From NCBI GenBank assembly GCA_973895155.1, contig OZ316896.1, positions 16,657,752-16,721,751 on the forward strand: a stretch of DNA of 64,000 nt, given 5' to 3'. This DNA is from Marsupella aquatica. Lineage: Eukaryota > Plantae > Marchantiophyta. The notes under the pieces are model-generated. The model did no database searches. It had not been told where the DNA came from and worked only from the letters and a program-made list of their open reading frames with translations. The position numbers and the translations under genes were made by a program. Numbering within the stretch: position 1 is the first letter of the stretch; each line of letters starts with the position of its first letter. Positions 1 through 36,812 of this stretch are shown here, in pieces.

Positions 1-138
1 AGAGATTAAAACGGTGATCACAAGCTCGTAACTCAGCTCTGTGACCACAGCAACCTTAATTAATGTAAACCTTTCCTTGCAAGAGTAAAGAACAGAAAGA
101 AATTTCACATCTCGAAACAGACAAATTTTAATCCTTAC

Positions 139-3100
139 TTGTTCGGGATGTTCTTAATCATTAAAGTCGTTCGAGAATCCTCCCCGCGCATAATTCTGTC
201 CAAGTCAAGCTGGTATTGCTTCTTGTTATCAGCCCGTGCAACACTACTCTCACCCCTGCGACTCCTTCCTCGTTCACTCAAGCCGTCCATAGGGGCAGAC
301 ATCGACCCTGGCAAGCTACCGTTGGGAAACATGCGAGGCCGGTGCTGTGGAGACATAACTCCTAGACTCGGAGATGCAGTCCCATGCTCAAGCCCACCGC
401 TACTCCCCATCCCGGACGCCAGATTCATGAGGCCATGTCCACCAGCAATATTGATTGCATGCGTTCCAGTTGAGCCACCAATACTCAAACCTCCCATATT
501 CATTGATCCAGGCCGGAGAAGAGAAGACGAATCTGGTGATTCTCCTAGATAGCCATGTCGTCTATCTAACACTGACGTCTCTCCAGGCGGAGCAGAGCCC
601 ACGTGATGTCCCCGATGTTGTGCAGGAATCATACTATTAACAAGATGGCCATGGGTCCCCGAGAAAGGATGAGACTGGGATTGAGATTGGCCACCGTGGT
701 TGAATGAGAGTCCAACTGATGAAGCAGACCAGATCAGAGGAGGCGAGCTCTGAGAATGGTGATGGTAAGGTGCTGGATTGCCCCAGAGAAACTGATGCCC
801 TGATAAAATCCACTCCCATTTAAGGTTCAGGTTAGGATTCACAAAATATCCGATGTTAGACACCTCATTCATTCTCACGACAGCGCCAAAAGCACTGCAT
901 GACCCTTCCCAAGAAGGTACTTCATATCGTGAAAAGAGCTGTAGATACAAGTCCGGTAAGATGAGATCAGTTATTAACCAATAACAAGAAGGGCAACAAT
1001 CATACCTCCATTGGCATGATCATAAGTCGGATCAGTCAAAGTCCCACTACTCGATCGCTGGAGTCGACTTCCTTCCACTTCACGAGACCTCAAAGTTGTT
1101 CCACTACTGGCAACTGATCCAGAGCCAGGAGCAGGGCTGTAATTCACCGAGCTCATTACACCGTTGCTGTATTCTGGAAGAGAATGGGGATGTTGTGGGG
1201 GTAGACGATGCACTCCCAGACCCATGTGTCCTAGGGAATGGCCCGCTTCTATCTGATTCGTTCCCACGTGGCTACCAATGGTTCCAACTCTCACTGGAGC
1301 TGACAAATGGGATGAGGATAAATGAGGTGGTAAACTGGCAGCCACTCCACTGAGAGGCTTGCTGACAATTTGGGAAAAGTTCCCGTGGATCGGATGTGAA
1401 CCACGGAGTGAGTTGCCATCAACAGAGCTACCCAAAGAACCCCATTGAGAAGGATGCCCTGAAATTCCAACAGAGTCTAACATTAAAGGAAAAATCCATA
1501 ATCCGAAACCCACTTGAGTAGAAGTTCTCTGGAAATTAGACTGTCCAAGTAGTATCATCCAGCACTAACTCACGACTGACTTCTGAATTTGTGGGACTTA
1601 ATGCAAATCAAGTAAATATGATCTTCTCCACCATCAGCCATAGTCGAGAAAGGCGAAGCATAAGAGCACCTATGCGGCCAGCTATATGGAACTCAGAGAT
1701 GCAGACTTTAGCTGCCCATCTGATGAGCCAATTCCTTTGACAACAAACCTGGAGGAGAGTTCGTAAGTGGTGAAAGCGCTTGCTGCCTGTGTGGACGATT
1801 CTCCTCTTGCTCCAGTTCTTGACTCAGCTGCTGCATCAGACTGTTTATAATCCCACTGCATTTTCAGGATCCACATGATAGCATGAAATGAAGCAAGAGC
1901 AAATGCTTCTCTAAACGTATATATTGTAGCTCACGAGTACACACCAGAGAAAGGAGGACCGCAAAAGAAATGACACCAGTAGTCATAAAGGAGAATTTCT
2001 GTAGGGGCGCGGCTCCACTGAGTCGGAACGTTGATTAATATAAAACTTTGGGCTATGGATATTAAGGGAGAAGACTGTTAGGAAGATCAACAGAAGATGT
2101 TCTATCTTCCACACATGACTGCAGTATATGATAACAATTAACCTCGAGCTATGGGGGCTCAATCTAATATGGCACCACACGATCCCTTAGCAAGGGTCAG
2201 ATGTGAGAATACGCACCTTCGGCGGGCTCCACCAGGTCGGCTAGGCTCAAGCTTGATGCGCTTTCCTGCTATATCACTCCTATTCAGAGCTCTGAGAGCA
2301 GCTTCTGCTGCCCTCACATCGTAGAACTCGATAAACTTATGATGCCGCTTATGTGGTGTTTCTCGAATCTGCTCAATGCGATCATCAGGGGAAGACCTTA
2401 GAATAGCAAACAAGTCGTAAACCATCACTGCAAGGCGCAGAAAAGAAATAGCATATTATACTCTCATGACCTATGTTGACAGAAAAACTTCGAAAATTTT
2501 GAAAATTTGCCCAGTGGCTACCTCTTTGACCTCTCCATAGACCCCGAAGATCTGACGAAGGTCATCATTTGAGACAGAAGCATCAAGATTAAAGACCACC
2601 AGTGTCCCCTGATTCACGTCCTTGTCCGAAGGATTATCCTGGGATATCAAACGGACAGTCAAAAGACGATATCACAGGCCGCGCAGCTTACCTCAGGCTC
2701 TAACCCCTCGGAGTATCTACGAGATTTAAAAAAAACTCATTCCTTGTATTTTCTGTTAAAGCCAGGCCATAGAGAGGTTCTAAAGCTCATGTCTAATAGT
2801 ACAAACAAGCATCCGATGCAGAGAGGCTACCTGGACAGACAACTTATTCCGTATTGTGTACAATAAACTCCCAGCTACGAGGGAATGTCAAAAACCACTG
2901 CTTGCAAGAAGCCTTGAGATCTTTGACCACACACGCTTTGACTCGTAGAAGTACGAGAAGGGAGGAGGATACAATTTAAGAGCTGCTCGTCAACTCTTCT
3001 TGTTGATTTGCAGAAATAACAGGGTGCGTGCGGCTGCTACGCCGGGCCCCTCCTCTCGTTAAGAGGTTCGCAGAAACTATTTCGTATTAGATTGATTAGA

Positions 3101-5222
3101 CTCCATAGTCCACGGACCCCAATAAGGGCAAGAAAGAATGCCCGGCACCTGGGAATGGCACTCTTAAGTCCTACTGCCTTTCCTTCGAGTATTGCCCGGT
3201 GTGAAACAATCACATTACTTTCCCAGTGTGTTCTTATTCATGACGAGACAATTAGTTAAGAGGCACACCTTGGGTATGGAAAAGTGAATATCCAGTTTGC
3301 GGCGACGCAGAGGCTTGTTCTGAAGCGCCCGCATTGCACTGCGTGCCGCCCGGATGTCATAATATGAAATCATGACAAATCCACGATGCTTACAGGCTGT
3401 GTAAAGCGTTCGGATAGCACCATATTGCTGCATCAAAATTCATCAATCAAAGAGAGAGCTGTAAGATTCCAAGCCAGACAGAAATAGTGTGTGACCTGTC
3501 GACAATTCAGCCCCTTCCCGCACTAATCCCGCTCGACAACGCTGATTCTAAGGAGAGCAAGGAATTAGCTACAGAAGCTGTGTAAAGCTTTCGGAACGAC
3601 AACCAAATCTCTCTTCGACCTGATAAGGGAGCAAAAATGACCAATTCTTCAGCAAAACAGCTTTTGTCTGCTCGGAGAAGTAACCTGCAGTTCAGCTCTC
3701 AGGCATGAAGGGCAAATTAAGAACATTGATCAGCTGCCTTCTTAGCGTACTGTTTTATGGAGACCATTGGTCTGATTTGCAACGACCGACTTTGGTGGTC
3801 TTTGCAAATTGTTGTAAGGTTAGTTCTATGTGGCGATAGGACTATCTAATTTATTTATCAGAGGCTGAACGGTTCAAGTACTACTTAAAGAAGTGATGTC
3901 ATGAGTCATCGAGTGACATCACTTCTATAAGTAGTACATCGAGTCCACTACATTGGGTGCACATATAGGAAAATTAATCAGTGGAAGCCTATTCTATCAG
4001 GCTTCTTAGGTTTACAGATGTAAGTTAAGGTCTATCTATTACCTCAAAGAGCGCACGAAGTTCTGTATCCTCCACGTTGCTATTTATATTACGAACAAAA
4101 AGTGTTCTCGAAGGATGCTCGCCATAAGGATGTTCACCAGCAACAGACCCAGCGGCACTTGATCCAGCATGACCTCCAGAGCCTCCCACCAAAACATCCA
4201 GAGTTCGGTGGGTATTCAAGATAGCATTGAGGGCATCCTGAGGATCACTTTCCAGCTCCATGCCACCGCCACTGCTGAAAAGATCGGTATCATCCCCTTC
4301 CTCAATATTTGTAGATGGGTAATCATAATCTCCATTTACACCAGCTAGTAACTCTTCCTCATCATCAGGAAGGAGATTGCCTATTGTATGCGACTCGATA
4401 TCTTCTATTGAGTCAAAAGGCTCCTCTCCTTCAAGGTCCCCATTTAAGTGCGATCCAGTTGTGTCAATTGAGTGGCTAACGCCATCCGGATTGGAGAGCC
4501 TCACTGCAAGACAACAAAACGTAACGACTAGCTCTATGAGAGTAGCACAACTCGAACAACAGCAAATTTTAAGGTTCAAATCGATCCGTGAAGAGAAATA
4601 CACTCCCATTATCACAATTTTGCAACCGTATCAAATTATTTAAGTTACTCAACATCACAGAAGGAAGTCAGAAAGGCTGTCACGTACGAACATTATCAAA
4701 TTCGCACCACAGTAAGAAGCCTTTACTTAAGCAATTTATACTGGCTGGTACTGGCAGCAAGGCCAGATATCAGGCATTAACAGCCAATTGGTTCTTCTGA
4801 GCTAGCATATTGCATTTTCGCAAAAACCTGGTGTGCAAATGGGCCGCTCTACTTACAACTGTTTTGGAAAAGGGCTGGAAAGGAGCTTGAAAATCCCCTT
4901 GTATCGCCATCTCCAAAGCCCGAATCCAGCTTTTCATGTCCCCCATTGACACGCGGGGACGACGACAACGGATTTGAATTTCTCAAGCCTGCAATGTTGT
5001 CGCTGGAACTATTCCAAGTATATGATGACAGGCTGGTTCTCCTCTCGGAACCGACAGCCCATTGATCACCACTGCCCTTCCCTTGGTGATGCCTGGACCA
5101 GTCCTGGGTGCTTGAAGACCAATCACCATGAGATGGATTAGCTTGCTCGGACGGCCCATTGCCATGATTGTGCATTCCTCTACTTGATGACTCCATTGAG
5201 TGCAAGTCCTCTAAACCATACC
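139..5222 (-). CDS. AML: MEI2-like (AML) RNA-binding protein, 3 RRMs; multi-exon, 3' end lies beyond the window start. Exons read: 5222-4857, 4503-4043, 3427-3269, 2638-2522, 2368-2217, 1840-1749, 1458-1006, 799-139
   Basis: Family motifs GEHPYGEHPSRTLFVRNINSNVED (RRM1), YGAIRTLYTACKHRGFVMISYYDIRAA, NQGTLVVFNLD and IRETPHKRHHKFIEFYDVRAAEAAL (RRM2), SLMQQLSQELEQEE, and YQLDLDRIMRGEDSRTTLMIKNIPNK (start of RRM3). The GT-AG boundaries give in-phase joins. Confidence 0.95.
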
Positions 5223-7388
5223 CTGCGAGTACAAACAATTCCGCTCAGCAAGAACTCAAGGAACAACTGTGACATCGAATGAGTATTCATAGGTATTGAA
5301 TCTGCTACTGTAAATGTAAAACCTGGTCTTTGGGATATGCTTGTATCGTGACCGATTTGGACTCTATATCGACCAAATTCCAAAAGAATTGAATATGGTC
5401 GACCTCAGAACTAACTCGTGCAAAAGCATCCACAATTGCAGATCACCACACTGACTATAAAATACAAAACATGTACCAATCACAAAACTCTGCAAGAGTT
5501 TATTGAGAGAAACTCTATGGTCTGACACTTTCACAGTATTGAGAAAGCCAGGAAACACGTTAAAATGGTCAGGATCTGTTCTCAAATTGGACTCTGGAGT
5601 ACTATTTAAAACACTGAAGTCGGCTTGCCCCGGATCCACACAAATACTGCAGGAATGTAAACTAAAGTGCAACAGCTTGGGCAACAGCATCCATTTTTGA
5701 ACCAGAGATCGACCAACATGGCCAGCACTTCTATCCAATGACCATAAGATGTCCTCACCAGAAGACAATGATATGACCAACAACACCACAGGGCCGTCCA
5801 TTCCCAAAGCCAAGAGGGTGGGCAACGTCTTCAAACCAGTAAGTAAAGCATGCATTTGCTCACTCCTCGAGACCTTCGAAGTGCGAACGACACACCAACG
5901 ACAACGAAAATATGCGACCTACCATATGAAGACGATAAAACTTGAGAAGCGGAAGTTGAATATCCGTCAAGATTCCCATTATTGCCCCCTTCACTTTCCC
6001 AAAACCCTACTCGTCTCTGTAATCACAGACCACAACCAGAAAAAATGAAAAACAGCAGCAGGCTAGCAAGTCACTGTGAAAGTAACATTATCACAGTTCT
6101 AGAGTCAATCTGGAGAGTGAGATCAAGCGTTGACCGGCAGCAGAGTCCCTGCAACACAATAAGATTGTGGAAGACTATATTCGATCTCCTTCGCAAGAGG
6201 AACCACAGCAGCTCAAAGCTCGTAAGAAAAGATGACGAATCTACCAATGCGCCTCCTTTTCAGCCTTCGCAAGCCCAGATTCCAATCCAGAAGTGAAACA
6301 GCTGAAGCTTTACTTCTTATCCACAGACTGCAGCGAGTCCCGGTAACGAAAACTTGCGTACAATAGTTGGCCCCACATATCGGGTCAGACTATCTGGCGG
6401 AAATTCCGAAGATATAAAGCTTCCCAATGACAACCTTGCCATGACGGTCCCGTCAAGTTGTGAGCGGAGCTACAACCAAATTTGTTTTCGACCAACCTCA
6501 GACCGCTTCTTTGTCTTCAGTCAGACAATCTTATGCATATCTGCTCGGTATGGGCATCGAGTGAGGCCCACTTCTAGACGAAAAAGCAATTACTAGATAC
6601 GTCAACAGCCAATCCGGACGTCATCCATGTCACGACAACGGACTGCGTTCGATCTCGAAGAAACTACGACGACGTCCGTCGGCCTAATACCAACTTAGTG
6701 CGAAGGAAAATGGTCCTTTGGTCGTGGCTTCGTTGTTCTGTCCAATTGCTGTTTCAATTCAACAAAGCGGTCGAGAAAGTCATCACGAGGAGGCTCCTGA
6801 AGCTTTCTACGGCCATTTGAAGTAAACCAAGCCGCTCGCGCCTTGGACGAAGAGGGACATCTAAGTCCTTTCATGGAAACTGGTTCTGAGATTGTCACAC
6901 ATGGACGCACCGCATACAAACAAGTATCCACCAAAAAGCATCCCAGGCATTGGCTGGTGCTCTGAGAAAACGAGACTCCTTTGGAAACGGAGACCATTTT
7001 CACTTTTAGAAACAAGATCAAGCAAGCATACCCACAAATGCAACGCACGACGCCCCCCTCCTCATACAATGCTGACTTCCTGTGCGAAACAACCATGTCG
7101 GCCGAACGATTGTGCCAGCCAACAGATCGTTCCAGTAAAACTTATGGACCAGATCTGTACAGACTACCCAAACAAGAAGGCCCTACTAAGTCGCAGAACT
7201 TCAAGCAGGTATGTTCGAATCAACAAAAATCCACATCAGCGACGAAATTAAAGCGAACTTTAGGACACTGAGAGACAGAAATTCAGGATCCGACTGATCG
7301 CACCATGACCTAGGAAACCACTCTTCATACAAGATACCGAAAAAGTTGATCTACATGAAAGTGTAAGTGGAGAAGGTGTAGGGAAGAC

Positions 7389-8354: not shown

Positions 8355-9016
8355 AAACGCAACGAAACGCAACGCAACGCAACGCAACGCACACAGACAA
8401 GCACGAATGCAGGCACGCAGGGAGGCAGGGATGAAGGACGAGACGAGGAAGGCGAAGACGACGACGGTAAAGAATCACGGACGATCAACGCATAATCCCG
8501 CAGCACCGAAGTCGAGAGAGAGCCAGGCCGGTCGTCAATTAGCACGTCCACAGACACCACACCATCATCACACCCAGAGAGGTGACAAACAGGGAAACAC
8601 ACGAACAAATGACGAAACAAGATGATGCCACCACCGCCAGCTTTTGGCTTCCTCCAATCAAGCAATCAACCAAGCAATCAATCACTCACTCCCTCACTCA
8701 CTCAATCACTCAACCCAACCCCAACCCCAACCCAACCAAAGCGCTCCGCTGATCCGCTGATCCGCACCCCCTCCTCCTCCTCCTCCTCTCTTTCCGTGCC
8801 ATGCTTCGGTTGGTTGCTTTCCTTGCTCATCCGCTCTGGTCGTCGTCGACGACATTGCATTGTAGTAGTCGTCGCATCCACCACCATAGCAACCCCGCCA
8901 CGCCACGCCACGCCACGCTCAGCCCAGCCCAGCCCAGCCCAGCCCAAGCCAAAGCCGAATCAATAATCAATCCCATCCAAGCGATGAACCCCTCTCTCTC
9001 TCTCTCTCTCTCTCTC
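8355..9016. repeat. Cluster of simple sequence repeats in the AML 5' leader/promoter: (GCAAC)n, (CACT)n, (CCCAAC)n, (CCACG)n, (CCCAG)n, (CT)n
   Basis: Seen directly at ~8356-8392, 8683-8736, 8896-8946 and 8993-9016. Confidence 0.9.
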
Positions 9017-9959
9017 CACCACTCCACCACTGTAGCGCGGAACGAACGAAGGAAGACGGGAGGAGAGAGGCTGGTGGCGTGACCGCACGCACACCCCCCA
9101 ATCCTCGCCTTTCTTCAACTCGCCCCTTCCCCCCGCTTCATTCCCGTGTGCCTAGTATAATAATAGTCGGAACAACAAACAAGTGAACAACAAACAAGTG
9201 AACAACAACAATGGCAGCAACAACACGAAACAAGTCCAGGCTCAGCTCCTCGACCTCGCTTTCCGGCCACATGACGGACGGAAATCCCTCGGACGAATAA
9301 CACGAAATAAGCTCGGCCTCAGCTCGTTTTCCGGCGACATGACGGACAGAAATTACTCCTTCGCGGCCGCGGAATCCCTCGGACGGACCTGCAGACGAGG
9401 ATCAGTCGCCGCAAAGCTGAACGGGCGGCTTCCACTAACTACGGTTACACTAGGGGAATGGATTATTCGCCGCAAAGTCAGGACGGGAGACGCTGCCAAG
9501 GGACGGAGTGACGGGGACGGGCTTGGGGAAGCCGCAAAGTCTCATGGGACGAAGATGTGTCCCACTCCAGTCCCACTCCAGTACCAATTACACGGGAGCA
9601 TTTATTAGCGGTGTCGGGATTATTTTCCATTGGTCTAGCAATGTCCGTGTTTATTTGAAGTTTTGCTTTAGATGCCATAAACTGGAATCAATCCAAACCT
9701 TTGAACTCATATGACTATGAGATCCCAAAGTGCTCCTTGGACCAGGCGGTGACCAAAGCTCTGTGGTGGATATTGTGATAGTCATTATCACAACTTAAAA
9801 AACCCAAGCCTAATGACAGGCTTATCAGGGCAGCCCCCTTGAGTGATTGTTGCCATTTTGGGATGGCCTGTTCAAAGGGTCTGACAGAATACCCATCCCA
9901 AAGCAAACACCAACTATTGTATATTAGTGTTCTCATTAATAAAGGCTAAAGTGCACCCC

Positions 9960-10420
9960 AACAACAACTAATGTTCAGACCCATTAATATATTCTACACC
10001 CTGGAGACATTTCAGGTCTTCAGATTTGTTACTCTGGCCAAGGTTTTTGTTTGGAGCATACTTGCTCAAGGACTTCTTACAGGTTCTCAGGCCCTTAGGA
10101 GTGGAAAGTCTGACAGTTGTTGCCATATCTGCCAGGGAATACTCAAGACCATTCCCCATCTTCTCTGTGATTGTTTCCATGCCAAGTACTGCTGGAGGAC
10201 AGCTTGTGATTGGCGCATTGGGGGCAAGATTGAACCTCATTTCAAGCTAGTTGGTACCGCTCAACCTTTGAAGATCAGGACACAACCAGATATATTTCTA
10301 GTTTACCAAGTACTGTGGAGTATACAGTTGGCACAGAAAGGGCAGGTCTTTGATCTAACCAAGCGCAGTCTCTTTAATCAACGATCAACTTTGTCTGGAA
10401 ATTTTGATCATCTACTTTAG
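9960..10420 (+). pseudogene. LINE (L1-like) ORF2 relic, zf-RVT region
   Basis: AKVFVWSILAQGLLTG...CHICQGILKTIPHLLCDCFHAKYCW fits the C-x2-C...H-x3-C zinc finger found after plant L1 RT. Flanks are degenerate. Confidence 0.7.
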
Positions 10421-11636
10421 CTGTTGTTGAGGCAAGCACCCCTCTCAGGAACAAGCGCACAAGACTTCTATGAACGGGAAAAAATGCTACTATAGCTTCT
10501 GAGAACCCCACTATTATTGTGACAAGGTCCTTGAACACTCCCTTTCTGAATATTGGTTGCCTTATCTTGGAGAGAAACAGACACTACTGAAGTTGCTTTT
10601 GGCCCAATACTCTTAGAAGGATCTAAGAATAAATGTATACTGTCACTTAATGTTTCTATGTTCTTGTTTTGAAAGGTCTCCTGCTTGACTGACCTGATCA
10701 CACACCTTTTCACTACTGTAGATACTATTGGACTCTCTGGATGATGGGACAGCCCCTGTGGAGGACCATGTTGGTTGGTCTGGTCTGAGAGTATGTAATG
10801 GTGGCATGAACACCTTTGATGTTGTTGAAGCGGGTCAAAATGTGTTGGCCTTTTTGCCTTGAAAGGTCCTGATATGCCTCTCTTGGCCTGCTGGTTTCCC
10901 CCATCCCGGTAAGCAGAGTACCATTGCGAGTTGCTTGTTTTGAAAAATTCTAGGGTTTTGTTTGCCATTCCCCAAGTAAATCATTTCTAAGGTGTCAGGA
11001 TTTTTTTGAAGTGCACAAAAAGCCCAAACCATTTGCCAACCATACTTAAACTTATCTAGGCCACCCTAAAGCCTACTTATTCAACTCGATTGCCTTTCAA
11101 AACACATGGATTTGAGAAATAAGAACCTAGTGTGATCCAAAATATTCTTTTGACACTTGTTCAACAAAATATTATTTTTATATATTTTATAAAGTAAAAT
11201 TGGTCATGTAGATGTATTGTAGAATATTCTCAATATAAAATTGAGATGTATTAATTACTTCAGGATCATTTGTACTTGTCTGGAAAAGTCCACCAAATAA
11301 CCTCCAAGTGAACAAAACAAGAAGCCTTAAGGGATGAGTCCAAAGCCTTATTTCTCTTTTCAAAATCTTCATGATATTAAAAAGTGTATACCAAAAAACC
11401 ACCAAAAAATGGTATGTATTTTCCAAACTAGACTCAAGAGAATTTTACCACCAAAATCTAAGCATATCTTATATGATATTCTCACAATTGTATAAACCTT
11501 GAAATATGCACTTTATAAAAGTAATCAAAATCAAACTCATCGATCAGAGTTTAAGTCAAACTCAAAGTTTTACAAAATATAACCCAACTTAAGCCCAAGT
11601 GGTTTCAAATGCTACGAGTCCCTCTATTTATCTAGT

Positions 11637-14600
11637 CTAATCCAAAGGGACCGCTTCCCCTTCCCCGGTTCCGGAAGTCCCTGTCGTCAATTCTGGAACA
11701 ATTGTGGCATCGTCAACCACGCTATCCTCTCCGGCCTGAGGAATGTCTTCCTCACTCTCCTCATCCATCTCCCCCTGTCCGTCTTCCTCTTCAATGTTAT
11801 CTGCAAGGTTAAGAATCCTCCCTTTCAACACACTGCTCTGTCGCTCGTCAATCTCAATGGCAACGCAATGTCTCCCCATGGCCAAGGAGGAGGTTGTCCC
11901 AGTCCCTGATCCTGAACAAATATCCAAAACCCAGTCTCCAACCTGACTAAAATGACTCACTTCCCAATCTAACAATGCACGTGGTTTCTGATAAACATTC
12001 ACTGCCTTGTTATCCCCGTTGTGTTTCAGCTTCTTAGTCACAGCTGCGCATACAACCACATTGTTCCTTGATTCATTTGTGTCAAAATTGAAGTGCTCCA
12101 ATGACCGTTTACCATCCTGGCTGTGAAAGCCAATTGTAAAGCACTCAAAGTTGCTGTTCAATCTTGGTCCACCAGCATTCTTCACATTATCCTTAACCCT
12201 GAAAAGTCACAAAAAGTCAAGGAGTTATTTAAACTGAGAAACATGGTTCATGAAATCATGAATAACTAATAGTTGTTTTTTTCAAAAACAAATATTTCTT
12301 ACCACACACAATTCTGGAACCCTCCATTACACTCCGCTTTCAAAACGGTCTTGATGGCCTCATATTGGTCAAGGCTGTGGTGAATGATAATACGCCACAA
12401 CTTTGCAGTAGTAGCCACCTTGAACGATTGGACCATTTTTGTGATCTCCTCAGTTCCCCATCCAATAGTGTCTTCATGAAGACATCCAGGCAATGCAAAC
12501 CTATAGGGAATATCCACTAAAGCTAATGTGTAAGCCCGACCCAGAACCACCTCATGTAATCGCTGAGCATCATGAGTAAAAATATCATAGTGCACATCAC
12601 CAAACTCTGGATGCTCAAACGAATTTGGATGAAGTTCCCCCTCTTGGGTTTGCCGACTAGAAGTCTTCATGGATAGCCAATTTTGGGCTTGCACAATATG
12701 CGCATTGAATTTGTCCGGGAATGACTTGAGATCTTTGCCTTCCTCATCTCCCTTCTTTTTCCGGGAGGTGGTATCTTTCTACAAAAAGGAACTGTAGAAT
12801 TAGAAACAAGGATTCCAAATATTAAATGAATTCAAACAATCATTCGAAGAAAGGTGACAGAATCTTACCCATGTCTGGAAAACAGGTACGAAATTCTTAA
12901 GCACATTGTCTGTGCAATGCTCAGGGTACTTGGTTTTACAACCTGACCAACTCTCCTCGTGTAGACACGTGAGGAAGGCCTTCTGCACCTGCATCTGAAA
13001 TTTGTGTCGAGTAAATTCGTGACCCATTTCCTGTAAAGAGAGTTCTTTAGTAAGAACTCTCTGTAACACTGGGCAAATCATATCAGGATCTTTCAAGGCC
13101 TGCATGTGTCTCCACTCTGTTAATTTCATGTCCTCATAAGGCAATTTGGCATCTCCAGACTTAGAGACTTTCTTCTTGCCTTTGTCTCCTTTTTGACCTT
13201 TGATCTCACACATCTCCCACTTGTCACAAATCTGCCTCACAAATGACCACACAGGATCTTGTCGGAATGCCAACTGAAATAGGTTATCATTGGCATTAAG
13301 AACCTCAGCATCCTTTCGTACACCCCAATCCTTGAGATTGATTTCAGTAGCACACTCTTTCTTGAAATCCTGGTTGGACGACAATCCATTCTCAACAAAT
13401 CTCATGTGAATATAATTTACTCTCTGGATTGTCGTCATCTGTTGTCGAAATTCAGAATCAATATTGTGACTCCACGCAAGGTTTCTTGCCTCTTGCACAC
13501 TCAATCCCGCAAATATCCAAGATTGCACTCTCCGAAATGCCTTGTTGTTAGGGAACTGAAGAGCAAGGTCTGCTTTGGCACAGGCTGAATGGTTGCCCCC
13601 AATCACATAATAATGGTAATCAGCTTTCCTTGAAAAATCAAAGTCTTGCCTAGTAGCACACTCCTTCGGATCCACCAAGAGGACAAACGGAGCTGCAAGT
13701 GGACTGGCACCTACAGTCTTCATCCGCAAGGTCAATTGGGTCAAGAAATATGGTTGGATGTGTCGGACCTGGTAAATGGGCAAGCCCACAGCCTTCTCTC
13801 TCACTGGAGGGTAAAGTTGACCAATGTCAACGGTCACGGTCTCCTCTTGAACACCACATCTTCCCAGAATCTCCTCCTGGTACAATACCCGTGCATCCAT
13901 TGACATTGATTGAGCCTTTTGCTCCAAATGCGTTGGAATTTTCTCCAAAGTCTTCTTTTTTGACTTTGTAGCACTGGGCTCGGTAGGCTCAGGAGTCATA
14001 GCAGGTCGCTTCTTTGAAGAAATGCGAGTTCCAGTCGTACCTTGTGCCGACCCACCAGTCAAAGCCGTTCCCTGGGATGATCTGCCAACTTGAGATCCCC
14101 CTCCAGATGCTGCTGCTTCCCGGGAGGTTGTAGGCGCTACCACGGTCAAAATATCATTGGGTAAAATGCTAGGCCTCGATCCAGAAGGAACACCGGAAGC
14201 CCCAGATTTGGGTGGACGACTTACTCCCTTCTCTGCCGACCTTCTCCGGAGAATCTCTCTTGATTTTTGGATTGCACTCTTTAAAGTGCTAGCGTGAAAT
14301 TCAAACACAAAACCGGAAATCTTTCCCGCGACGTCGTGGTAACGTTCCTCACTCGAAAGAGACTTGACAGTCTCAATGATGCTATCGATGTCCTCATCGA
14401 GATAGCAGGTGGCAGCCGTTCCAGAAAACCTCTCCACATCCACGACAATCAAAGTTGAAGTTTCCTTCGTTGTGATCAACATGTTCACAACTTCGTCGCC
14501 CCGTCGAAATACATCGATGCGGCCGTAATTTACCCACCCTAATGCCCCCGATGGAAGCCCCTCAAATACACACAGCATTAGGAAGGGCTTCTTCCATGTT

Positions 14601-14692
14601 TCTGTCCCTAAGGAAATCGTCCAGGATGAGTTGTGGAAGTCTGTCAAAGGATGGCGCGAAAAGATGTCATCCACCAGCTCTTCCTGCGACAT
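11637..14692 (-). CDS. ParB/Srx-like domain fused to a beta-class amino (N6-adenine or N4-cytosine) DNA methyltransferase. Exons 14692-12869, 12778-12303, 12198-11637; 953 aa with no stops or frameshifts after splicing
   Basis: Motif IV-like LALVDIPY precedes CVWVK, YQKPRALLDW, motif I GDWVLDICSGSGTG and motif II GRHCVAIEID (beta-class order). Exon 1 has ParB-like PFVLLV...YYVIGGNHSACA...SVQEARNLAWSHN. Both GT-AG introns splice in frame. Confidence 0.85.
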
Positions 14693-15448
14693 TGTTATGT
14701 TTTTGCCTGATCTTCAAACCTGAGAACATACCACAAAATCAGTCCACTTCAACCCCAACCTGCGAGACAAAGTGCCACAGAACCAAGGAATGTGCCAACA
14801 AATGGCTACTAAAACCGTGTCCTTACGGATCTAACAATGCTCTCGGCCACCCCAGGACTCCTATCATGAATTCATGAAGGGAGTCTCCCTCTCGCTCCGA
14901 CCTTCTTTGCTTGTACACCTCGGTGATGCAGAAGGGTATTTAAAATAGGGTTCGGAGGGGGGTGACGTGAAGAAATCACCCAGGGCCTAAATTACTACCT
15001 AAAACAGGGTCGAAATGAAGTGCGACCGCGACAACTCGCGACACGTCGCCGATGAGTGCTGAAAATGGCACGAAATTGGACAACGAGATTGTTTTTCACT
15101 CTTTTACAAAGGAAATCCAAATGACATTGAGTGAAAATGAATGGGCTGCCCCGTGTTCCTTGGTTATACATACTAATCACGGATCAGGCGCGACTTAGTA
15201 AAATTAACCCAGAATCATGATAAATCAATGTTTTTGGGCCAATTATTCATGAATATTTCGGGGTATTAACGGGAAAAAGCTTGCAAATTTCATGAATATT
15301 TGATATTTTTGAAGTTAAAAAGTCCCAACAATCCGTGAAAAACTATAAATAGGCTCGTTTATTCATGACTCTTGGTCATTATTTTGAGAAGATTTGTTAG
15401 ATTTTACTGATTTTCTGAGTTTCTTGTCAATTTGCACTAGTTTTTCCA
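14693..15448. promoter_or_regulatory. Putative bidirectional promoter between methyltransferase and transposase
   Basis: TATA-like CTATAAATA at ~15343 (+) and an AT box at ~14937-14947 (-). Six TCATGA palindromes lie at 14864, 14872, 15215, 15247, 15290 and 15363. Confidence 0.5.
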
Positions 15449-18400
15449 ATGGCGGCGTGTTACGAATCAGATGATTATTCAGATGGAGTTTCTGATGATG
15501 TTTCATTGCCGGATGGCCCCTGCACAGTGGTTGGCCCAGATATCCCTGGAATAACTACTGTTTTAGATATGCCACCCCCACCCCTATGAGCAAGTTAAAA
15601 CGTAGTCCTTTACGACTTGCAATTAGTGGGAAGAAATCATTGGTCGGTGGTAAAGAGAGGTCAAGGAGCTCCTCTGACTCCTTGGAGAGTATTGGTCCAC
15701 CTGGACGTCAAGTTGTATCTCCTTTGTCACCAACAAAGGACAAATTGGGGAGTAATCTGGAAGGTTCAATGCCTATTTGGATGTCTGGGAAACGGTCTCA
15801 TGAATTCATGAAGACTGGATTTGGAAAGACGAAGAAGGCACTAAGTGGGGAAAATGACAGAGATTTTTGCAGTCTCCAAAGTGTTCAGCGGCTGAAGCAA
15901 ATGCCAAAAAGTAAAACCTTTGGTAAGCCACCATCGGAAACATTTCACAGGGGGATGAGGGAAGAAACTAGACGACCAGTGTTATTGAAAAGTATTCCAG
16001 AAAAGAATTCTAATGTGCGTTCCTCAGTTTTACCTAGGAGTCATGGTGTTGGGGCAGGGAGCGGATCAAGTCACGGAAACTCAAACAGGGAAACCAACCT
16101 GGTGGAGAGGGACCCTAGGAAAATATTGAAAGGGTCCCTACACGGTAATGGAGGGATTTCTGAAATACGCCCAGGTATTCCAAGGGTGCATAGAGTGAAG
16201 GAAGAGCCTCCATCTCCGAAGGCTGCAGGTCTGGAATCTAGGCATGTTCAGAAGCAAAAGTTGGTGACCATTTCATCATCGAATGAAAGCGAGTCTTCGG
16301 AGAGTGGGGAGGATGATGATGTTCCGGTGGCATCTAGTCGTTACAAACGTACGAGCAACGCCACTTTGTGTGAAACAAAGTTGAAAGAGGAGGATATCAA
16401 GAAAACAAATAGTAAGTACTGTTGTCAGAGTCATTGTCTCCTAAGTCTATCTCCAAAAGAAATTTGTGAGGCGCGTTCTAAATTTTTGAGGCAGAAATCT
16501 CAGGATCGATCTTTATCTTTGCAGTGGCTTATAAAGCGAGACGGAAATGAAGGAGGGAGGCAGACTATATCTTACACGTTTGGTCAAAAGAGTATTTGTC
16601 GGAAAGCTTTCAAGCTTATATTTTGCGTTGGCAATCATAGATTAAATAGAATTTTGAAATTAGACAACCAAGACTTAGGATATTCTAAACCAGTTGGACG
16701 CCCTCCATCTGTTAAAAGATTAGTCTTGGTCAGTTGGCTTAGGTCATTTTTTGAGACACGCGTGGAAACATTGCCAAATAAAGAAGTTTTACATTTACCG
16801 GATAATTATTCAAAGCTGGAGGTATGGAAGATCTACGACTCCAACTATGCCAAGATTGATGAATCTTCAAAAATATCCTATCGACAATTCTTGAAAGTTT
16901 GGGTTCAAGAATTTGGTCATGTGAAGATTCCTCCAGTCAATCGATTCAGTGCTTGCGCGGATTGCGAGGAGTTCAAATCAATTCGGGACAAAGCTGTCTC
17001 GGAGACCGAAAAGAGTAAGTTACTTACAAGTTTGACAAGTTTTTGTTTCAAGAATATGGCTTAACACATGATTTCTAATTTTTTTTGAAGAAACTAACAA
17101 GTTGTTTTTCCAGGGCGAGGGGAAATTATGTTAAAAAAACATAGAGACCAACAATCCAAAGAACGTGAGAAACTCGCAAAGCATCGTAAGAAATGTTTTT
17201 CAAATTCTGATAAATATTTGGGAGTTGTCATTGATGGGATGGATCAGAAGAAGACAAGGTTGCCTCATTGGCCGCGGCCCCCAAAATCGGTGGACGAAAC
17301 ATGTTTGATCCAAATGCACGTTGTCGGATGCCTGGTTTTCAATGGTGCACTATTTTCAAGAGTGTTTCTTAATTATCCTGTATTGCATAATGATGGAAAC
17401 TTGACAGTCACAATCCTGCAAAGGGTGTTTCACGAATGGGAAGAAAAGCCTAGTGGCTTGCCGCCTGTTCTCTATCTTCAACTTGATAATACCAGTAGAG
17501 AAAATAAAAATAATTTACTCTTTGCCTATCTTCATATGTTGATTCGAAGAAAGGTTTTTCGGAAAATCAAACTAGGATTCTTGTTGGTTGGACACACACA
17601 CGACCAAATAGATCAAATGTTCAGTCGATTTTCTAAACGACTAGCAAGGTTTAAGGCATTCACATACGAAAGCCTATGTGATATTATTTGTGAATCATAT
17701 CAACCCCAACCAAATATCACTCTTTTAAAGGAAACATATGATTTCCGTCAATATGCCTTCTCAGATCCACCTTTAGTCATTGAAAGGATTCGAAATGTTA
17801 CCTTCCACCACCAGTACAAATTTGCATTTGACAAGTTGGAAAATCAAGTTCCAACCCAATGGGGGAAGAAGTTTTCCACGGACTCAACTTGGAAACCTGA
17901 CGGAGGCGTGAAATTTTTGAGGGAAGAGGAGCCAGAAAAGGTGATGGGTTGTGCTCCCGGATTACCCCTTTTCAAAAAGGGGGATAAGAACGTTACAAGG
18001 ACTCAACCAAATATGTCTAGTTCTTCAAGAATGACTTTGAAGGAGATGGATGATTCGTTAAATGAGATTCAAAAGGGAATACTTGCAGTTGAAACTTTAT
18101 TCTCAGAAGAGGAAGTGAACTGGTGGAGAATGTTTTTTGAAGAGCAACGAGAATTGAATAAATCTTTGCTCCTTGATCAAAGACCATTGATTTTCCCTTT
18201 TCAATGGCCACGCTCCCAAAGGGAGATTGCTGTTGCTGCTGAAGTTCCCAGAGTCCTTGTCAATGTAAATTGAAGAGAGAGTATACAGACCTACCAGAGA
18301 TATATACGTGGGTCCTTATCGGAATCAAGGAAAGATAGATGCAGAGAAGGAGAATATGGAAGGAGACTTTTCGGATCTTGAAGTCAACACTTATATTTCT

Positions 18401-18841
18401 GTTGCTGGAGAAGAATCGGAAACATTTTGGGTGGCCAAGGTGGAAAGAATTGACCAGCGCGACGAGTTCAACATTCCAAAAATGATTTATGTTTTATGGC
18501 ATGCTACAAAAACCGGGTCAGATCCTTGGAAAGCCAAGTACTTACCAGAAGTCTTAAACTACGAAAAGAAGAAAAGTGGTCGTGGGAAAGGAACTTTGAA
18601 ACCAATATGGTTTCACCAAGAGCTTGATTTATCTTCAACGACTGTTTTTGCTTACAACTTCATGTTGACAAAATCTGATACATTGTACAAAAAGACAGCA
18701 GATCGAATCAAAATCCAATTGACTGAATTTTTGGCAGAAGAGAAAGAGCAAGAACAAGAGAATGGATCAACTAGAACCCCGCTAGGAGATAAATCTAGGG
18801 ATATTTCGTTTCAAGAATTGAGGACTTCTGGATCTGAGTAA
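15449..18841 (+). CDS. Sola-like (DDD, RNase H fold) transposase with a C-terminal beta-barrel domain. Intron 17015-17113; apparent 1-bp frameshifts near 15580 and 18270
   Basis: Cys motifs CCQSHC and FSACADC, and catalytic-like IDGMDQKK, LYLQLDNTSRENKN and FLLVGHTHDQIDQMFS. The intron joins ORFs 15586 and 17128 in frame (EK-R-RGEIML). The superfamily name rests on recalled motifs only. Confidence 0.72.
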
Positions 18842-20283
18842 TGAAAAGTAGTTATTGTTTGTGACATTACCATTGAAAAACATGGATAACTTGAAAATTT
18901 ACAAATTTTCAAAATGCCTTTACCACTTATTCATGAATTCATGGTTAAAGTTTCTTGAGAAATTTGTAGTTTAATATTATCTTAGTGGGTTGTGTTTCAA
19001 TTCAATTAGATGGTGTCATTTCTATTCTCCTTGTCTTCTTTTCACAATAATGTGTATCAGGTTAAGTTGTAGTAATTTATTTTCTGGTTTTTAAATGACA
19101 ATGGCTTTTGGAGGTGATTTAGTTGTTGTTTCAAAAGACACCTCGTGTAATTGTGAGACCATTGTAGATAATAGTGTTGTATTTGAGATCATTTATTGGT
19201 GGAATGTAACTTCAGATGAATTTGGTCATTTTTAGGTGTCAAAACATAGCTAGTTTATGTCATATTTTGTTCGCTCCATATTTTTGCTCTAAAATAGGTG
19301 CTAATTTTTGCACTTTTTTTGACTTTTTCGTTGTTTTTCTGATTTTTTGGCTAGAGTTCCTAAAGTATGGGCTTGTTACTCATCATTTAAGGCTTCTTGT
19401 TACAAATCTAAAATCACATTGCACCCATTAATTCAACCTGAATACAAGCAAGTTACATCTGGACCCCAGGTTTGGCCTTGACGGGCATATTGGGGTCTCG
19501 ACCCCATCAAACCGGCATCCGTCACCCGGTCGCCAGGTCCACCACCCACCCGGCCAGCCCCAACCCCGACCCCAACCCCGCCCCTACCATTTTCGACCCA
19601 GCCCCAACCTCACCCGGTCCCCCACCCACCTGGCCCGCCCCGACCCCGACCCTGCCCCCACCATTTTTTACCCAGTCCAGCCTCGACCTCACCCGGTCCC
19701 CCCACCCACCCTACCCTGCCCGGCTGCGACCCCAAACCGGGGGACCGGCTCATTAGACCAGGGGAGTCCAGGGGGAGTCATGGGGAAAAATTGGGAATGG
19801 CCCGGGAATCAACGGGAATATGCATCAAATTGTCTGTTTTTGGTCCGTCATTTGACAGTTTATGTGCCCCGCAAGGCGTCAAGTTGCCCGTTAGGTTAAA
19901 TCTGGTCTGGACCAGCATGATTATACAATTTCTTTGGTTGGTACAGGCTGGAAGTAAGATAATGGTGTGTTATTGGGTTTAATAACAGATAATTTTCTAC
20001 ATATAATAGATTTTTAATTCTAGCATCTTACTTATATAGCGCCAACTATGATCTAGAGTTGGGGCCTAGGTTTCTAGAGTGAAGCCTCTACTAGACCATA
20101 ACTACATGGTTCACCATGTAAATGGGAAAACTTATGGCTATGAGATATGTTAAATGATAACTATCATGCATGCTTTTTGTCATTATTTCTACTTACATTC
20201 AAAAATGGACTCTGTAGCCCCACCATAACATATGTGCAGGAAGAGGGATGTGCATAGAAAAGATGGTGGCATGTTATGTATGA

Positions 20284-20520
20284 CTAGCTCAATATCGGTG
20301 TGTTGCACAAAGATTTTGTGAAGAAAATAGATGTTGTATCGTCTAAAAACTTGTTAAGGAAAAAAAATGTTGCTAACAAAAAGATGTTGTGTCGCCCAAG
20401 ATGTTGTTAAGAAAAAAAGATGTTATATCGCCCAAGATGTTGTTAAGTTAAAAGATGTCGTGTCACCTAAGATGTCGTAAAGAAAAAAAGGGGTGGTGTC
20501 GCCCAAGATACAATCTTTAA
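20284..20520 (-). mobile_element. Non-autonomous Helitron-like 3' end with a degenerate ~30-bp minisatellite (copy 1)
   Basis: Plus strand A|CTAG-ctcaatat-CGGTGTGTTGCACA is the reverse complement of a hairpin followed by CTAG. It is followed by repeats of AAGATGTTGTGTCGCCCAAGATG. Confidence 0.55.
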
Positions 20521-20755
20521 AAAAAATGATGATGTGTATGATGGTTTTTTTCATTTCATTAAAATTCAAAGAATATAAGTAGAAGATATACTTTGGTGAC
20601 ACTTTTATTGTCCTAAGTGCTATTTCTTTGGTAGTAGGGGCTAGTTGTGATTAATATTTATAACATTTTATTATTACACATTACATACTATGCCAACTAC
20701 CAGCATTACTTGCTCATGAAGGATCTCCCTTCTCAACTATATACTTGATTCCCTT

Positions 20756-20801
<46 letters not shown>
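20756..20801. repeat. (AT)n microsatellite
   Basis: Seen directly. Confidence 0.95.
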
Positions 20802-20803
<2 letters not shown>

Positions 20804-21917
20804 ATGACAAGGACACACTCTAACAACTTGGATGTATGAAAAAGCATTTGGAGATCCTATCCCATAATATTATATATATTTTAAGGCTATAGATGTGAGC
20901 GTCAAAATTAAGAATATTTGGTGAGTCCCACTAAGGTATCATACGAAACTAGATTCCACATACATTTGAAGTACAGAACTACTGTAGCTAGGGTTACATT
21001 TTTTTAGTTTTAGAACTACTACACAGCCAACGCCAGGTATTACTTTGCTTGCTAGCCCGATGCTGCGTCCTCCCTTTCACTCCTTCTGGACTTTCTCCCT
21101 CCCAACCCGACTCCCTCCCTTCACCCACCACCCTTTTCACCCCTCCAGCATGATTTAAAAAATGTGACCCAAAGGCAGAAGAACAGTTACTCTTCTCACC
21201 TAATAGCGAAAAAGCCTAAAAGGCTCTCATGCTGATGCACTTCTCATGTTGAGTGGGGCTCCAATGTCCCAAAGTATTCGATGTAAAGTACTCTACACTA
21301 GCATTAGGTGTAGTCGGTACCTTTTACCTCCTTACTGTATAAGCAAGTAATAAGGACATCTTCGTCAACCAAGGGTGTCAAAAACCCTGGAAGATATGTC
21401 CTGTAGTGTGGTAACTATTCTCTCATTTTTCAACTTTGTAAACATAGTTCACGGAAGCCTTTTGGTTGGATAGGGTACTCTAGTGTTTGATGATGTACCC
21501 CATCCGTAGAGGAGTATGGTTGTGTGCTTTATCCTCGACTTTATCTTCCGTTGCCCAACCTTTATGCTTTTTGTTCCACTTTGAGCCAATCAGTTGATGA
21601 GATGAAATTGAAAGAACAAAATATTGAAAATTAAACAATCTGAAATAATCTGGTAATTTCATATCCAATATGAGCCACACAGATTATTTAGCACAAGAAT
21701 TACAATATATATGCTTGATGGGACCCTGGCAAAAAAATTTTACCTGATAGTACCTCACCAAAGTAATCTTACCAACTAGGGCCCCTCTGACACATTTGTC
21801 TCTGAAGTTCTTGTAACAATTTCTATAAACAAGTTTCTTCTTGGTATTGTGACCACCAACATCTCCCGCGACAGCTATTGTGACATTTATAGTCAACCGT
21901 GCCTAAACCACAAACAA

Positions 21918-23959
21918 TGTAATGCTGTACATTAGTTAGAAATGATGGAAATTTTATAAGTTTTAAACTTTTTCTAACTCAAGGTACAATCTAGTTACCT
22001 TTTATAGCAATTTAGATCAACTGAACACTTAACCTAATGTTATGCTTCATCGGAGGCTATTGTATTGGACAAGGATTGCGAATATAAATCCTTGCTCTTT
22101 ACATGCTACCAAGAAAGAAGACTGGACATCATTGGAGAAGCAATGCAGACTAGAAGATTCAAGAACCGACCTCCAAAACACTTTTTCAACAAGAATGAGC
22201 TCTGTATACAATTATCACAATCAGCCGATCTCTGCTATTTTAGTTCAATAGCTAAAGTGGTCAGAAAAGTCTCATACTTTTTCAGGAGGTAGTAGTTGCG
22301 TAGTAGAATCATCCCTGCAAGTTTCATCTCAAACCGACATGTGTTTTGAAAGTTAGAATTAATTTAGTTTTGTTGTTTTTTGCATAACCGCGACTTCGCC
22401 GACGCTTTGTGAAGCGTCCCTTGTATTGGTGGACGCTTCAGAAAGCGTCCACCCAAAGACCACGACGCTTTCTGAAGCGTCCACCACCCAACCAGTTGTA
22501 CTCCGACGCTCTGCAATCCACATGAGGAGCGACGCCCACAGAAACGTCTGCTACCCCGAAGGTGACCTCGACACTGTGACGCCCACTGAAGCGTCGCACC
22601 CGAAGACCAGAAGACGGACACTGCGACCAAAACCTCAAAATTCAGCCGACGCTTTCTGAAGCGTCCACAAAAGTCCTTTGTAGTTTTGGACGCTTTCTGA
22701 AGCGTCCACTATGTTCCCGACACTTAGAAAAATTTTCAGTTTTCGCACTTTTATAACACCGCGCCACTTTTACCGATTTATTTGAGGCACTTAGAAGTCT
22801 CAGAAAAGTCTGAAACTTTTCCAGCATATAGACTATATGTAGTAGAGTACCCTAGAAAAGTTTCAACTCATTCCGACTCTTAGTTTAGAAGTCAAAATTA
22901 GATTAAAATCACTGTTTATTAGTTTTACCGCAAACACCGACGCTTTACAAAGCGTCCGCTCAAACCTCGACGCTTTCTGAAGCGTCCCCTGCATTTTTGA
23001 CACTTTCAGCAGTGTCCATTCACTTTTCAAGGATGACCGTCATTAAGTTTATTCAAGACCCTTTAGATATGAAAGGGCATATCCTTTCAGTATCTCAGTC
23101 TCCTTGGGTTCCTGCTAGCCTATATGAAGTAGAATTTGTGTCATTTTCAAGTGTGAAGAAATAAAGTAGTGCCTGTGGCATGTGCTGCAGTACTATAATC
23201 ACCTTTGCAAAGCTTCCGTGTGTTTTCGTATGGTATGGAGCTTGCAAATACAAAGGAATTCTTCTCCCTTCCTTGGTCTGAATGATTGAGAGTTTAGATC
23301 ATTGAAGTAAAATTACTTGTATGAAGTTGAATCTCAGAAGTATGAGGGAATAGATTCCTTAAGTGGTGACAACCCATCTTCTTGAGTTCTTGATGCATAG
23401 TTTTTGGCGTGACATTGCTTGTGTATGGGATGCAAAGATTGTTACTCACCAATTACCTGTGACTTCAATTTGATCATGATGGTGTTTATTATTCGTGACT
23501 CAGAGTACCGACTGGATATCGAAGTGATTGATTACTAGTTTCTTCTGAGTACCTTTGGAAGGAAAAGTTGAGACATGTTGACGGCATTTTAGTAATCATC
23601 CTAGTACAGTAAACCATTCCAGAAATGTTCTTACGGATATACCACCCAAAATCATATCAAATGAAGTATTGATGAGAAGTTACCTTGGTGTTTTCCAGAC
23701 TCCCTCATCATACCTCAAGATTTCATTGTGTTTTGTTACTTGTTTCCATTTTATTAATTGCATTTACAATGTTAAGCAAATATTCAAATCTATGCCTTGC
23801 TGAGCAATCATAGTAAAAGGCTCAAACCTGTGTTTTTGTTACCTTAGTCATTCATAAGTGTTAAACGATAGAAAATCATTCCTTTATTGTTCTTCCATGG
23901 GATCGAATATCGAGTTTTGGATATTAAATGTTGATTTATGTCCTTAGTGCAATACTACA
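21918..23959. mobile_element. Solo LTR (~2.04 kb) with 5-bp TSD
   Basis: Starts TGTA and ends TACA, flanked on both sides by AACAA (21913-21917; 23960-23964). There is no coding capacity, and internal GACGCTTnnnnAAGCGTC repeats are present. Confidence 0.8.
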
Positions 23960-27834: not shown

Positions 27835-28187
27835 TGTCATGCCGAGGGACAGTGCCGCTTGTGCACATCGGCATGTCCCTCGCATGCCCGCTAGGTATGG
27901 TTAGGGCTAGTGTACTACTTGAGTTAGTGTCATGTTCTTGTAGCGAGTCTGGGCTGTTCTTGAGGTTTGTTAGTGTGACGCCTGGACCCGGTCCTACTTA
28001 GGGCATGTTTTTCTTTGCTGTTCTTCAGTTCTTCTTGAATCGCTGTGAGACAGAGTTTTTCAGAGGCTGCTCGTCGATTCCGTACACGGAATTCACACAG
28101 TGATTCGTTAGATGCTCCCGGCCGATCTTGGCATCTCGCCGGTTTTCGATTCGATTTCAGTACGTTTGTTTCTATCACGCCTTTTAT
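27835..28187 (+). repeat. Terminal repeat A1 (353 bp)
   Basis: Direct repeat of 36998-37350; begins TGTCATGCCGAGGG. Confidence 0.95.
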
Positions 28188-28200
28188 TCAAGAAGAACTG
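28186..28200 (+). other. Putative self-priming primer-binding site
   Basis: ATTCAAGAAGAACTG sits at the 3' edge of A1 and is the exact reverse complement of CAGTTCTTCTTGAAT at 28026-28040. No tRNA-type TGG... PBS is present. Confidence 0.6.
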
Positions 28201-33475: not shown

Positions 33476-33589
33476 ACTTGCATCCTTTTTCAGATGTCCA
33501 TTCCTCCAGCATCAGGAGTTCCAGTTCTACCACTCCATGGTGCACTTACCTTTGTCCAACACTCACCACTTCAGTCCCAGTGTTGGGGG

Positions 33590-36780: not shown

Positions 36781-36812
36781 CTTTTCTTTAGCCCTCCTTT
36801 TGGCTGTGGTCT

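Follow-up and report, generated by a model that had tools for sequence, protein, structure and literature searches.

What use might a plant transposon have for a DNA methyltransferase fused to a ParB-like protein? The question is raised by a stretch of 64,000 nucleotides from the liverwort Marsupella aquatica (GenBank assembly GCA_973895155.1, contig OZ316896.1, positions 16,657,752 to 16,721,751), hereafter the window, in whose numbering all positions are given. A first-pass annotation, made from the letters alone, had proposed that three open reading frames here splice into a ParB-methyltransferase gene, transcribed divergently from a Sola-like transposase. We find that both genes lie within one element with inverted ends, and that each of three relatives (this element and two metagenome loci) repeats its own TCATG-N4-CATGA palindrome at matching places, which is the new observation here. 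We hold in even balance our prediction that this is a young, multi-copy Sola1 transposon whose ParB-methyltransferase binds the element's own palindrome and methylates adenines in element DNA.

An intron-containing ParB-methyltransferase gene

The methyltransferase gene runs on the minus strand from an ATG at 14692 to a stop at 11637 and, once its three frames are joined, encodes 953 aa with zero internal stops. Many alternative GT/AG pairs also yield an open frame, so that the open spliced frame is little proof alone, and independent support for the chosen splice sites was sought: firstly, only two GGTAAG donors occur in the gene, both at the chosen sites; secondly, the introns have a G+C content of 26-30%, as against 45-48% in the exons; thirdly, the metagenome loci L001 and L002, whose protein is ~65% identical, have GT-AG introns at the same two codons; fourthly, the exon-1 products of gene-called relatives terminate at the same W|V donor, just past the same tryptophan, and the annotated Calypogeia fissa model P0013 continues from the ParB part into the methyltransferase part. 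On these grounds the gene, joined from open reading frames across two predicted introns, is confirmed as real. L001 (near 1030-1120) and L002 (near 2100-2320) have an apparent extra N-terminal intron at about residue 124, which the window gene lacks.

Evidence for a Sola1-type element holding both genes

The element spans 11316-19401 (8,086 bp), has AAC…GTT inverted ends and holds both genes (Table 1). It was delimited by a search for terminal inverted repeats (TIRs) and target-site duplications (TSDs), which returned 32-nt ends and a flanking ACAA; the duplication was seen at one insertion only (chance ~1/256). Contig depth was taken from four runs (X1 to X4, from two studies) of the seven, from five studies, that contain this stretch. 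It rises at the left end and falls at the right end in all four, the step up falling in the same bins each time. Single contigs of X1 have a depth of 19.9 on the flank and 484-621 over both genes (~25-30x), which we state only as tens of copies, contig depth not being copy number and X1 possibly being the window's own sample. Single-copy flank contigs of X1 and X3 end at 11343, which would place the start of the repeat at ~11314-11316 if the assembly word is, as we infer, 31 letters. Among the X1 contigs listed, those within the element carry 0-8 differences from this copy per 0.6-1.8 kb; so small a divergence indicates a young family.

In X2 and X4 (organism B), element contigs across window positions 9500-21500 lie 1-2 letters per ~375 from this copy; some left-flank contigs are ~4% different and right-flank contigs <1%. 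Recent transfer, hybrid origin or mixed haplotypes could underlie this pattern.

The three catalytic aspartates of the transposase (DDD) are kept in 90/95, 115/116 and 107/111 of the rows with letters (121 aligned), and exon 2 matches DUF7869 (E 1.5e-51). In the accessible text of PMC10741241, DDD is the Sola triad, and general Sola features include a 4-bp TSD, TIRs of 11-1124 bp and a size of 2-9 kb. Positions 82-94 of the published Sola1 RNase H profile, ilysDncagqNkn (PMC5751038 supplement), were compared, by eye only, with LYLQLDNTSRENKN here; the Sola1 label rests on the DDD, TSD and TIR features and on a by-eye look at profile positions 57-107. Together, the inverted ends, the duplication, the depth step across both genes, the aspartate triad and the head-to-head layout agree with the annotated plant DNA transposon and its divergent Sola-like transposase. 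They support assignment of the element to the Sola1 type, with both genes carried as one mobile unit.

The annotation had contrasted an intact methyltransferase frame with two frameshifts in the transposase. The two breaks are real in this copy; a further candidate at 17064-17098 was rejected, being the intron. Near 15574 the break is of one base; the X1 contig lacks it at full depth, as does a part of the X2 and X4 depth (X3 has no row there). Near 18265 it is of five bases, and here the unbroken form makes up all or nearly all of the depth in X1, X3 and X4 and about half in X2; close transposase relatives read through this second break as a single frame. The contrast thus loses its meaning: the breaks are private to this copy, the deepest contigs have neither, and they reflect decay of this copy, not domestication. 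This bears on the reading in which the methyltransferase is a host gene, single-copy and domesticated, or lies merely by chance beside a dead transposase. The open methyltransferase frame and broken transposase of the window copy would suit it, but the inverted ends and their duplication enclose both genes, depth exceeds that of the flank tens of times over, the transposase reads through at both places in the deepest contigs, and the layout recurs in L002 and in the brown alga Ectocarpus. Domestication was rejected, and we find this reading scarcely credible.

A ParB fold seen by structure comparison

Residues 240-607 were modelled from a 92-row alignment with a predicted local distance difference test (pLDDT) score of 90.8. 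In a Foldseek search of PDB the top ten matches were all ParB or Noc (E 1.3e-5 to 4e-4), and in a viral structure library ParB-like proteins ranked first. A second aligner (VIA) matched the N-domain to Caulobacter ParB with Z 9.6 and a root-mean-square deviation (rmsd) of 2.7 over 99 residues, and both domains together to KorB (Z 9.3, rmsd 4.5, 200 residues). The fold was seen by structure comparison only, the window protein having no Pfam match to it; exon 1 sequence profiles found no match in PDB, Pfam, PHROGs or NCBIfam. By the model, the ParB N-terminal fold is present, in keeping with the annotated ParB/Srx-like domain in which GGNHS stands for GxxR and the arginine is replaced. GG-H is kept in 78 of 82-83 rows, and we take GGNHS, by motif, to occupy the position of the arginine of ParB GxxRxxA. 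The annotated "helical linker" partly matches the ParB DNA-binding domain (best match a part of Spo0J; Z 5.3, rmsd 4.3, 97 residues).

For residues 20-240 of the stretch at 12872-13975 (minus strand), language-model look-alikes (0.96) include fungal DUF3723 proteins and sponge and mollusc clusters. DUF3723 is a Starship accessory gene.

A beta-class amino-methyltransferase with a D-type motif IV

The motifs named in the annotation lie where it had put them: GGNHS at residues 365-369, DIPY at 697-700, YQKP (which holds QKP) at 836-839 and DICSGSGT at 859-866. Exon 3 matches PF01555 above the cut-off in a Pfam scan (E 1.6e-8; score 35.3, cut-off 26.7), a PHROG DNA methyltransferase (E 1.8e-12) and the CcrM model (E 3.3e-10, far below that model's cut-off). 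The motif order (IV, QKP, I) is that of the permuted, beta class. The best solved matches of the family profile are the adenine enzymes DpnA, RsrI, MboIIA and CcrMI (E 1e-13 to 3e-10); N4-cytosine (N4C) enzymes rank lower, at E 1.4e-4 (rotifer N4CMT structure) and 0.067. Of the 28 rows aligned, 23 have letters at the start of motif IV; all 23 begin it with D and none with S. Canonical [DNS]PP[YFW] is absent from the window protein, and DPPY occurs, among the 23 rows, in P0163 and P0164 only. These data support a beta-class amino-methyltransferase with a D-type motif IV, as annotated, and its predicted product is likely N6-methyladenine (6mA).

The same targeting with N4-methylcytosine (4mC) as the product, directly blocking or mimicking host 5-methylcytosine (5mC), is very unlikely in our judgement. 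The beta class includes N4C writers, among them the rotifer N4CMT matched above, and some D-type enzymes make 4mC. None of the 23 rows has S in motif IV, however, a motif that reads SPPY or TSPPY in the 4mC enzymes of rotifers and Marchantia.

The frame shows signs of constraint. Against both L001 and L002, the proportion of nonsynonymous differences (pN) is ~0.24 and that of synonymous differences (pS) 0.73-0.84 in both domains (methyltransferase domain: pN 0.24, pS 0.73), from which the methyltransferase gene is evidently under purifying selection. These comparisons also bear on a reading in which the protein is a DNA-binding anti-silencing factor or transposition helper, its methyltransferase domain weak or inactive and serving as a dimer or base-flipping scaffold. 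The non-canonical DIPY, and DIPS, DIPH or DFPC in 8/23 relatives, would fit such a scaffold. The three close elements nevertheless keep D, P-Y, QKP, motif I and motif II despite near-saturated synonymous sites; L002 does have F for S within motif I, though a stop in its ParB part also interrupts that copy. We regard a scaffold as unlikely, though not negligibly so.

Each relative repeats its own palindrome

No hexamer is more over-represented than TCATGA, either in the element or in L002. CATG is not enriched (33 against 35.7 expected), which leaves CATG without support as a methylation target. The element holds four TCATG-AATT-CATGA sites, each with at most one mismatch; L001 has three sites with a CTAG centre, two of them within 32-bp perfect palindromes, and L002 has five with an ATAT or near-ATAT centre. 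The TCATG-N4-CATGA arms are thus common to all three, and the central four letters differ (AATT, CTAG, ATAT). In a motif-free check, each of the three sequences held one 12-nt perfect palindrome three times, a repetition that 0/200 order-3 Markov simulations reached for any of them; no other window slice (0/7) held any 12-nt perfect palindrome twice. Locations recur as well: intron 2 and the region upstream of the methyltransferase start in 3/3 and, wherever the transposase frame is visible, a place 330-400 nt inside it. The repeated TCATG-N4-CATGA is likely a parS-like site, and we treat it as a candidate.

Alternatively, the enzyme could be active and the palindromes be sites for the transposase, with methylation at a short motif or broadly, for transposition timing or whole-genome marking. 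Dam times IS10 transposition, and eukaryotic transposases often bind internal repeats; TCATGA is enriched on its own (14 against 4.5 expected), and the match of the DNA-binding domain is weak. The sites lie, however, in an intron, the promoter and coding sequence, away from the ends; symmetric 14-16-bp sites suit a ParB-type dimer, and in red algae inverted repeats adjoin the ParB-like PAG3 gene. This alternative strikes us as decidedly unlikely.

Table 1. Features of the element and of its two genes, in window positions.
Feature	Position	Strand	Remarks
Left TSD, ACAA	11312..11315	+	same 4 letters after right end
Left TIR	11316..11347	+	begins AACAAG; 32 nt, 84% complementary to 19370-19401
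Methyltransferase exon 3	11637..12198	-	YQKP, putative SAM (S-adenosylmethionine)-binding motif I DICSGSGT, acidic tail, stop; PF01555, PHROG and CcrM matches
Methyltransferase intron 2 (predicted)	12199..12302	-	104 nt, GTAAGA…TTCAG; contains one palindrome site
Palindrome site	12248..12261	.	1 mismatch to TCATGAATTCATGA; in intron 2, where L001 and L002 each have a site of their own
Methyltransferase exon 2	12303..12778	-	predicted catalytic motif IV DIPY at 12514-12503
Methyltransferase intron 1 (predicted)	12779..12868	-	90 nt, GTAAGA…TGTAG; W|V donor common to relatives
Methyltransferase exon 1	12869..14692	-	N-terminal domain ~1-150, low-complexity linker, ParB N-domain ~283-420 with GGNHS, helical region ~420-565
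Perfect palindrome	14864..14877	.	TCATGAATTCATGA; 172 nt upstream of methyltransferase start, shared divergent promoter region
Transposase exon 1	15449..17015	+	start MAACYE…SDDVSLP; cysteine clusters CCQSHC, CADC; frame break near 15574 in this copy
Perfect palindrome	15798..15811	.	349 nt into transposase frame; L002 sites at 332 and 395 nt
Transposase intron (predicted)	17016..17114	+	99 nt, GTAAGT…TTCCAG, 27% G+C
Transposase exon 2	17115..18841	+	DDD core: DGMDQ at 17233, LDNTSRENKN near 17485, GHTHDQID at 17590-17613; frame break near 18265 in this copy
Palindrome site	18931..18944	.	1 mismatch; directly past transposase stop
Right TIR	19370..19401	-	ends CTTGTT; partner of left repeat
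Right TSD, ACAA	19402..19405	+	mirrors left side

Proposed mechanism

In the mechanism that we favour, a dimer would read TCATG-N4-CATGA through its ParB-type DNA-binding helices, much as ParB reads parS. The N-domain would then close or oligomerise on the DNA; replacement of the ParB arginine makes its use of a nucleotide uncertain. The tethered enzyme would write 6mA near the shared promoter and within the genes, and either this mark or the bound protein would let the element be transcribed or move in spite of host 5mC silencing. Damaged copies, such as that of the window, may receive both proteins in trans from intact ones. A fuller version, in which land-plant Sola1 elements would use parS/ParB addressing, with an own 14-bp palindrome, the central four letters as a family code, spreading, and shielding by 6mA from 5mC silencing, is put forward tentatively, as possible but somewhat unlikely.

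A number of observations count against binding and adenine methylation by this protein. In its ParB part, the DNA-binding domain alone matches weakly (Z 3.8-5.3), and in place of the ParB arginine most of the 82 rows have S (51) or T (8) after GGNH, with G in 6 and C in 4, which makes hydrolysis of cytidine triphosphate doubtful. In the methyltransferase part, motif IV is DIPY rather than DPPY and motif I is CxGxG; only 14/23 rows close motif IV with Y, the other 9 having S, H, C or a gap in that fourth place, so that some relatives may be dead. L002, with its stop in the ParB part, is one of only two relatives compared in this way. The palindromes could be transposase sites instead. In the four runs, no single contig covers a whole intact copy. 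Finally, the observed/expected CpG ratio of the element is 0.60, against 0.73 in the host gene region and 0.29 in the neighbouring gypsy element, and differences among copies are dominated by A>G, G>A, T>C and C>T; any protection from 5mC would therefore be incomplete.

Relatives and the spread of the family

Of the two metagenome loci, one shows the two genes together. In L002 the methyltransferase gene is accompanied by a divergent transposase-like frame with the same start as the window transposase (MAACYE…SDDVSLP). L001 offers only ~640 nt upstream, and no transposase-like start was seen within that stretch. The annotated pairing thus holds in L002. P0002, a close methyltransferase relative, and P0165, the best transposase match, are each a single Logan protein on an 8,829-nt contig, which suggests that they probably share one contig and belong to one element.

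Among 30 proteins looked up, the fusion family occurs in Chara, Riccia, Calypogeia, Adiantum, Ginkgo, Ptychodera and Actinia. By its sequences it is an old family, spread across Chara, liverworts, a fern, Ginkgo and marine animals. PF01555 was found at E 0.01 or better in 9/44 long relatives scanned, 8 of them above the cut-off. In a tree of 58 of the 92 rows (34 short rows dropped), the window protein falls in a 17-row group that includes two Calypogeia proteins. A profile search found a 1825-aa Chara protein (P0022, Chara braunii), in which either two ParB-methyltransferase units follow one another or the gene model is a merged one. None of 1339 candidates proved to be a longer fused relative (1064-3035 aa), which is weak evidence.

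Pattern searches, which reach close relatives only, found none among 16 stretches of viral contigs (0/16) or 11 from prokaryote genomes (0/11). With P0045, a relative, as the query, identity to phage enzymes was 23-29% among the matches listed (20 of 301 records). Recent transfer from bacteria was rejected in view of the spliceosomal introns and the wide eukaryotic spread.

Relation to known systems

A brown-algal Sola1 element of this architecture has already been published: Sola1-1_Ec32 of Ectocarpus has a 1104-aa ParB-like and N4C/N6-adenine (N6A) methyltransferase accessory protein, and its best match is the moss element Sola1-1_PPa (PMC12477816). By description, it has these features in common with the present element: the second gene lies opposite the transposase strand, ParB-like and methyltransferase parts form one protein, the ends are AACCG-CGGTT (AAC…GTT here), and the 4-bp duplication is biased to end in A. 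Sola1-1_Ec32 is larger, at 21.5 kb as against 8.1 kb, has a longer repeat (282 bp; ~32 bp here) and differs in host, a brown alga with 2 intact copies listed as against a land plant. The string "palindrom" is absent from the main text of PMC12477816.

The same self-marking idea has been proposed for Sola1-1_Ec32 and for Plavaka PAG3 (PMC12477816; bioRxiv 10.1101/2025.02.11.637652). PAG2/PAG3 of Bostrychia resemble the present case in having a transposon-borne PF01555 methyltransferase, a ParB-like domain and inverted repeats proposed as a self-binding site (bioRxiv 10.1101/2025.02.11.637652). They belong to an EnSpm/Plavaka element, however, with the methyltransferase fused to SET and the ParB-like domain to a 2-oxoglutarate (2OG) oxygenase in separate genes, and their repeats form tandem arrays whereas those here are dispersed.

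MpDN4MT1a/b of Marchantia (bioRxiv 10.1101/2021.02.12.428880) and N4CMT of bdelloid rotifers (PMC8885841, PMC10406627) are likewise eukaryotic enzymes of the permuted beta class; unlike the present gene they are host genes with (T)SPPY and make 4mC, and N4CMT has a chromodomain. As a vehicle for 4mC systems of this kind, part of the role proposed in the annotation, the element is a candidate at most. The word "ParB" is absent from the accessible text of two of these 4mC papers, which were searched for it. With bacterial ParB, Noc and KorB and the phage ParB-methyltransferase fusions (PMC4738411), the window protein has in common the ParB N-domain fold, weakly the DNA-binding domain, and a phage-related methyltransferase. 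It departs from them in its replaced GxxR arginine and spliceosomal introns, and there is no ParA.

In the VANDAL/VANC system, a Mutator accessory protein is proposed to bind motifs of its own family and to change methylation, removing 5mC. The likeness is that of a transposon accessory protein proposed to bind its own family's motifs; the element (Mutator), the unrelated protein and the removal of 5mC rather than addition of an amino-methyl mark set it apart. VANDAL/VANC anti-silencing of eudicots is named in bioRxiv 10.1101/2025.02.11.637652. The accessible part of PMC12695648 has nothing on this ParB-methyltransferase family, and a literature search, its scope excluding subscription papers, Repbase notes and the Bostrychia supplements, returned no land-plant description of this element or its palindrome.

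Other features of the window

At 27835-37297 lies a Gypsy-type retrotransposon with 300-nt terminal repeats that are 99% alike and with interrupted frames. Between protease and reverse transcriptase it has a C5 cytosine methyltransferase (PF00145, E 9.5e-7, 32001-33440, plus strand), so that two mobile elements of one window, Sola1-type and gypsy, carry unrelated DNA methyltransferases. Retrotransposons with C5 methyltransferases occur in charophytes and dinoflagellates. On the minus strand at ~135-5244 are exon pieces with the look of a host gene, which gave no Pfam match on the pieces scanned and which we take, by motifs, to resemble a MEI2-like RRM gene. A zf-RVT remnant of a long interspersed nuclear element lies at 9950-10417 (plus strand; E 2.3e-5, below cut-off), and a separate high-copy repeat with a 36-nt unit at 19926-20727 and 37870-38122. 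An Rfam scan of 9000-22000 gave no match.

Significance

The idea that transposons mark themselves through a ParB-methyltransferase has so far been based, in the accessible texts, on domain prediction in algae (PMC12477816; bioRxiv 10.1101/2025.02.11.637652). The value of the present family is that of a young, compact and apparently intact land-plant test case: near-identical copies, deepest contigs with open frames, conserved catalytic residues and a candidate site that varies between relatives make the idea testable. If active, the enzyme may be a site-directed 6mA writer, and would bear on enzyme-made DNA 6mA in land plants and on the escape of transposons from silencing. Should the addressing by palindrome prove true, land plants would possess an enzymatic source of true DNA 6mA that is directed to specific sites.

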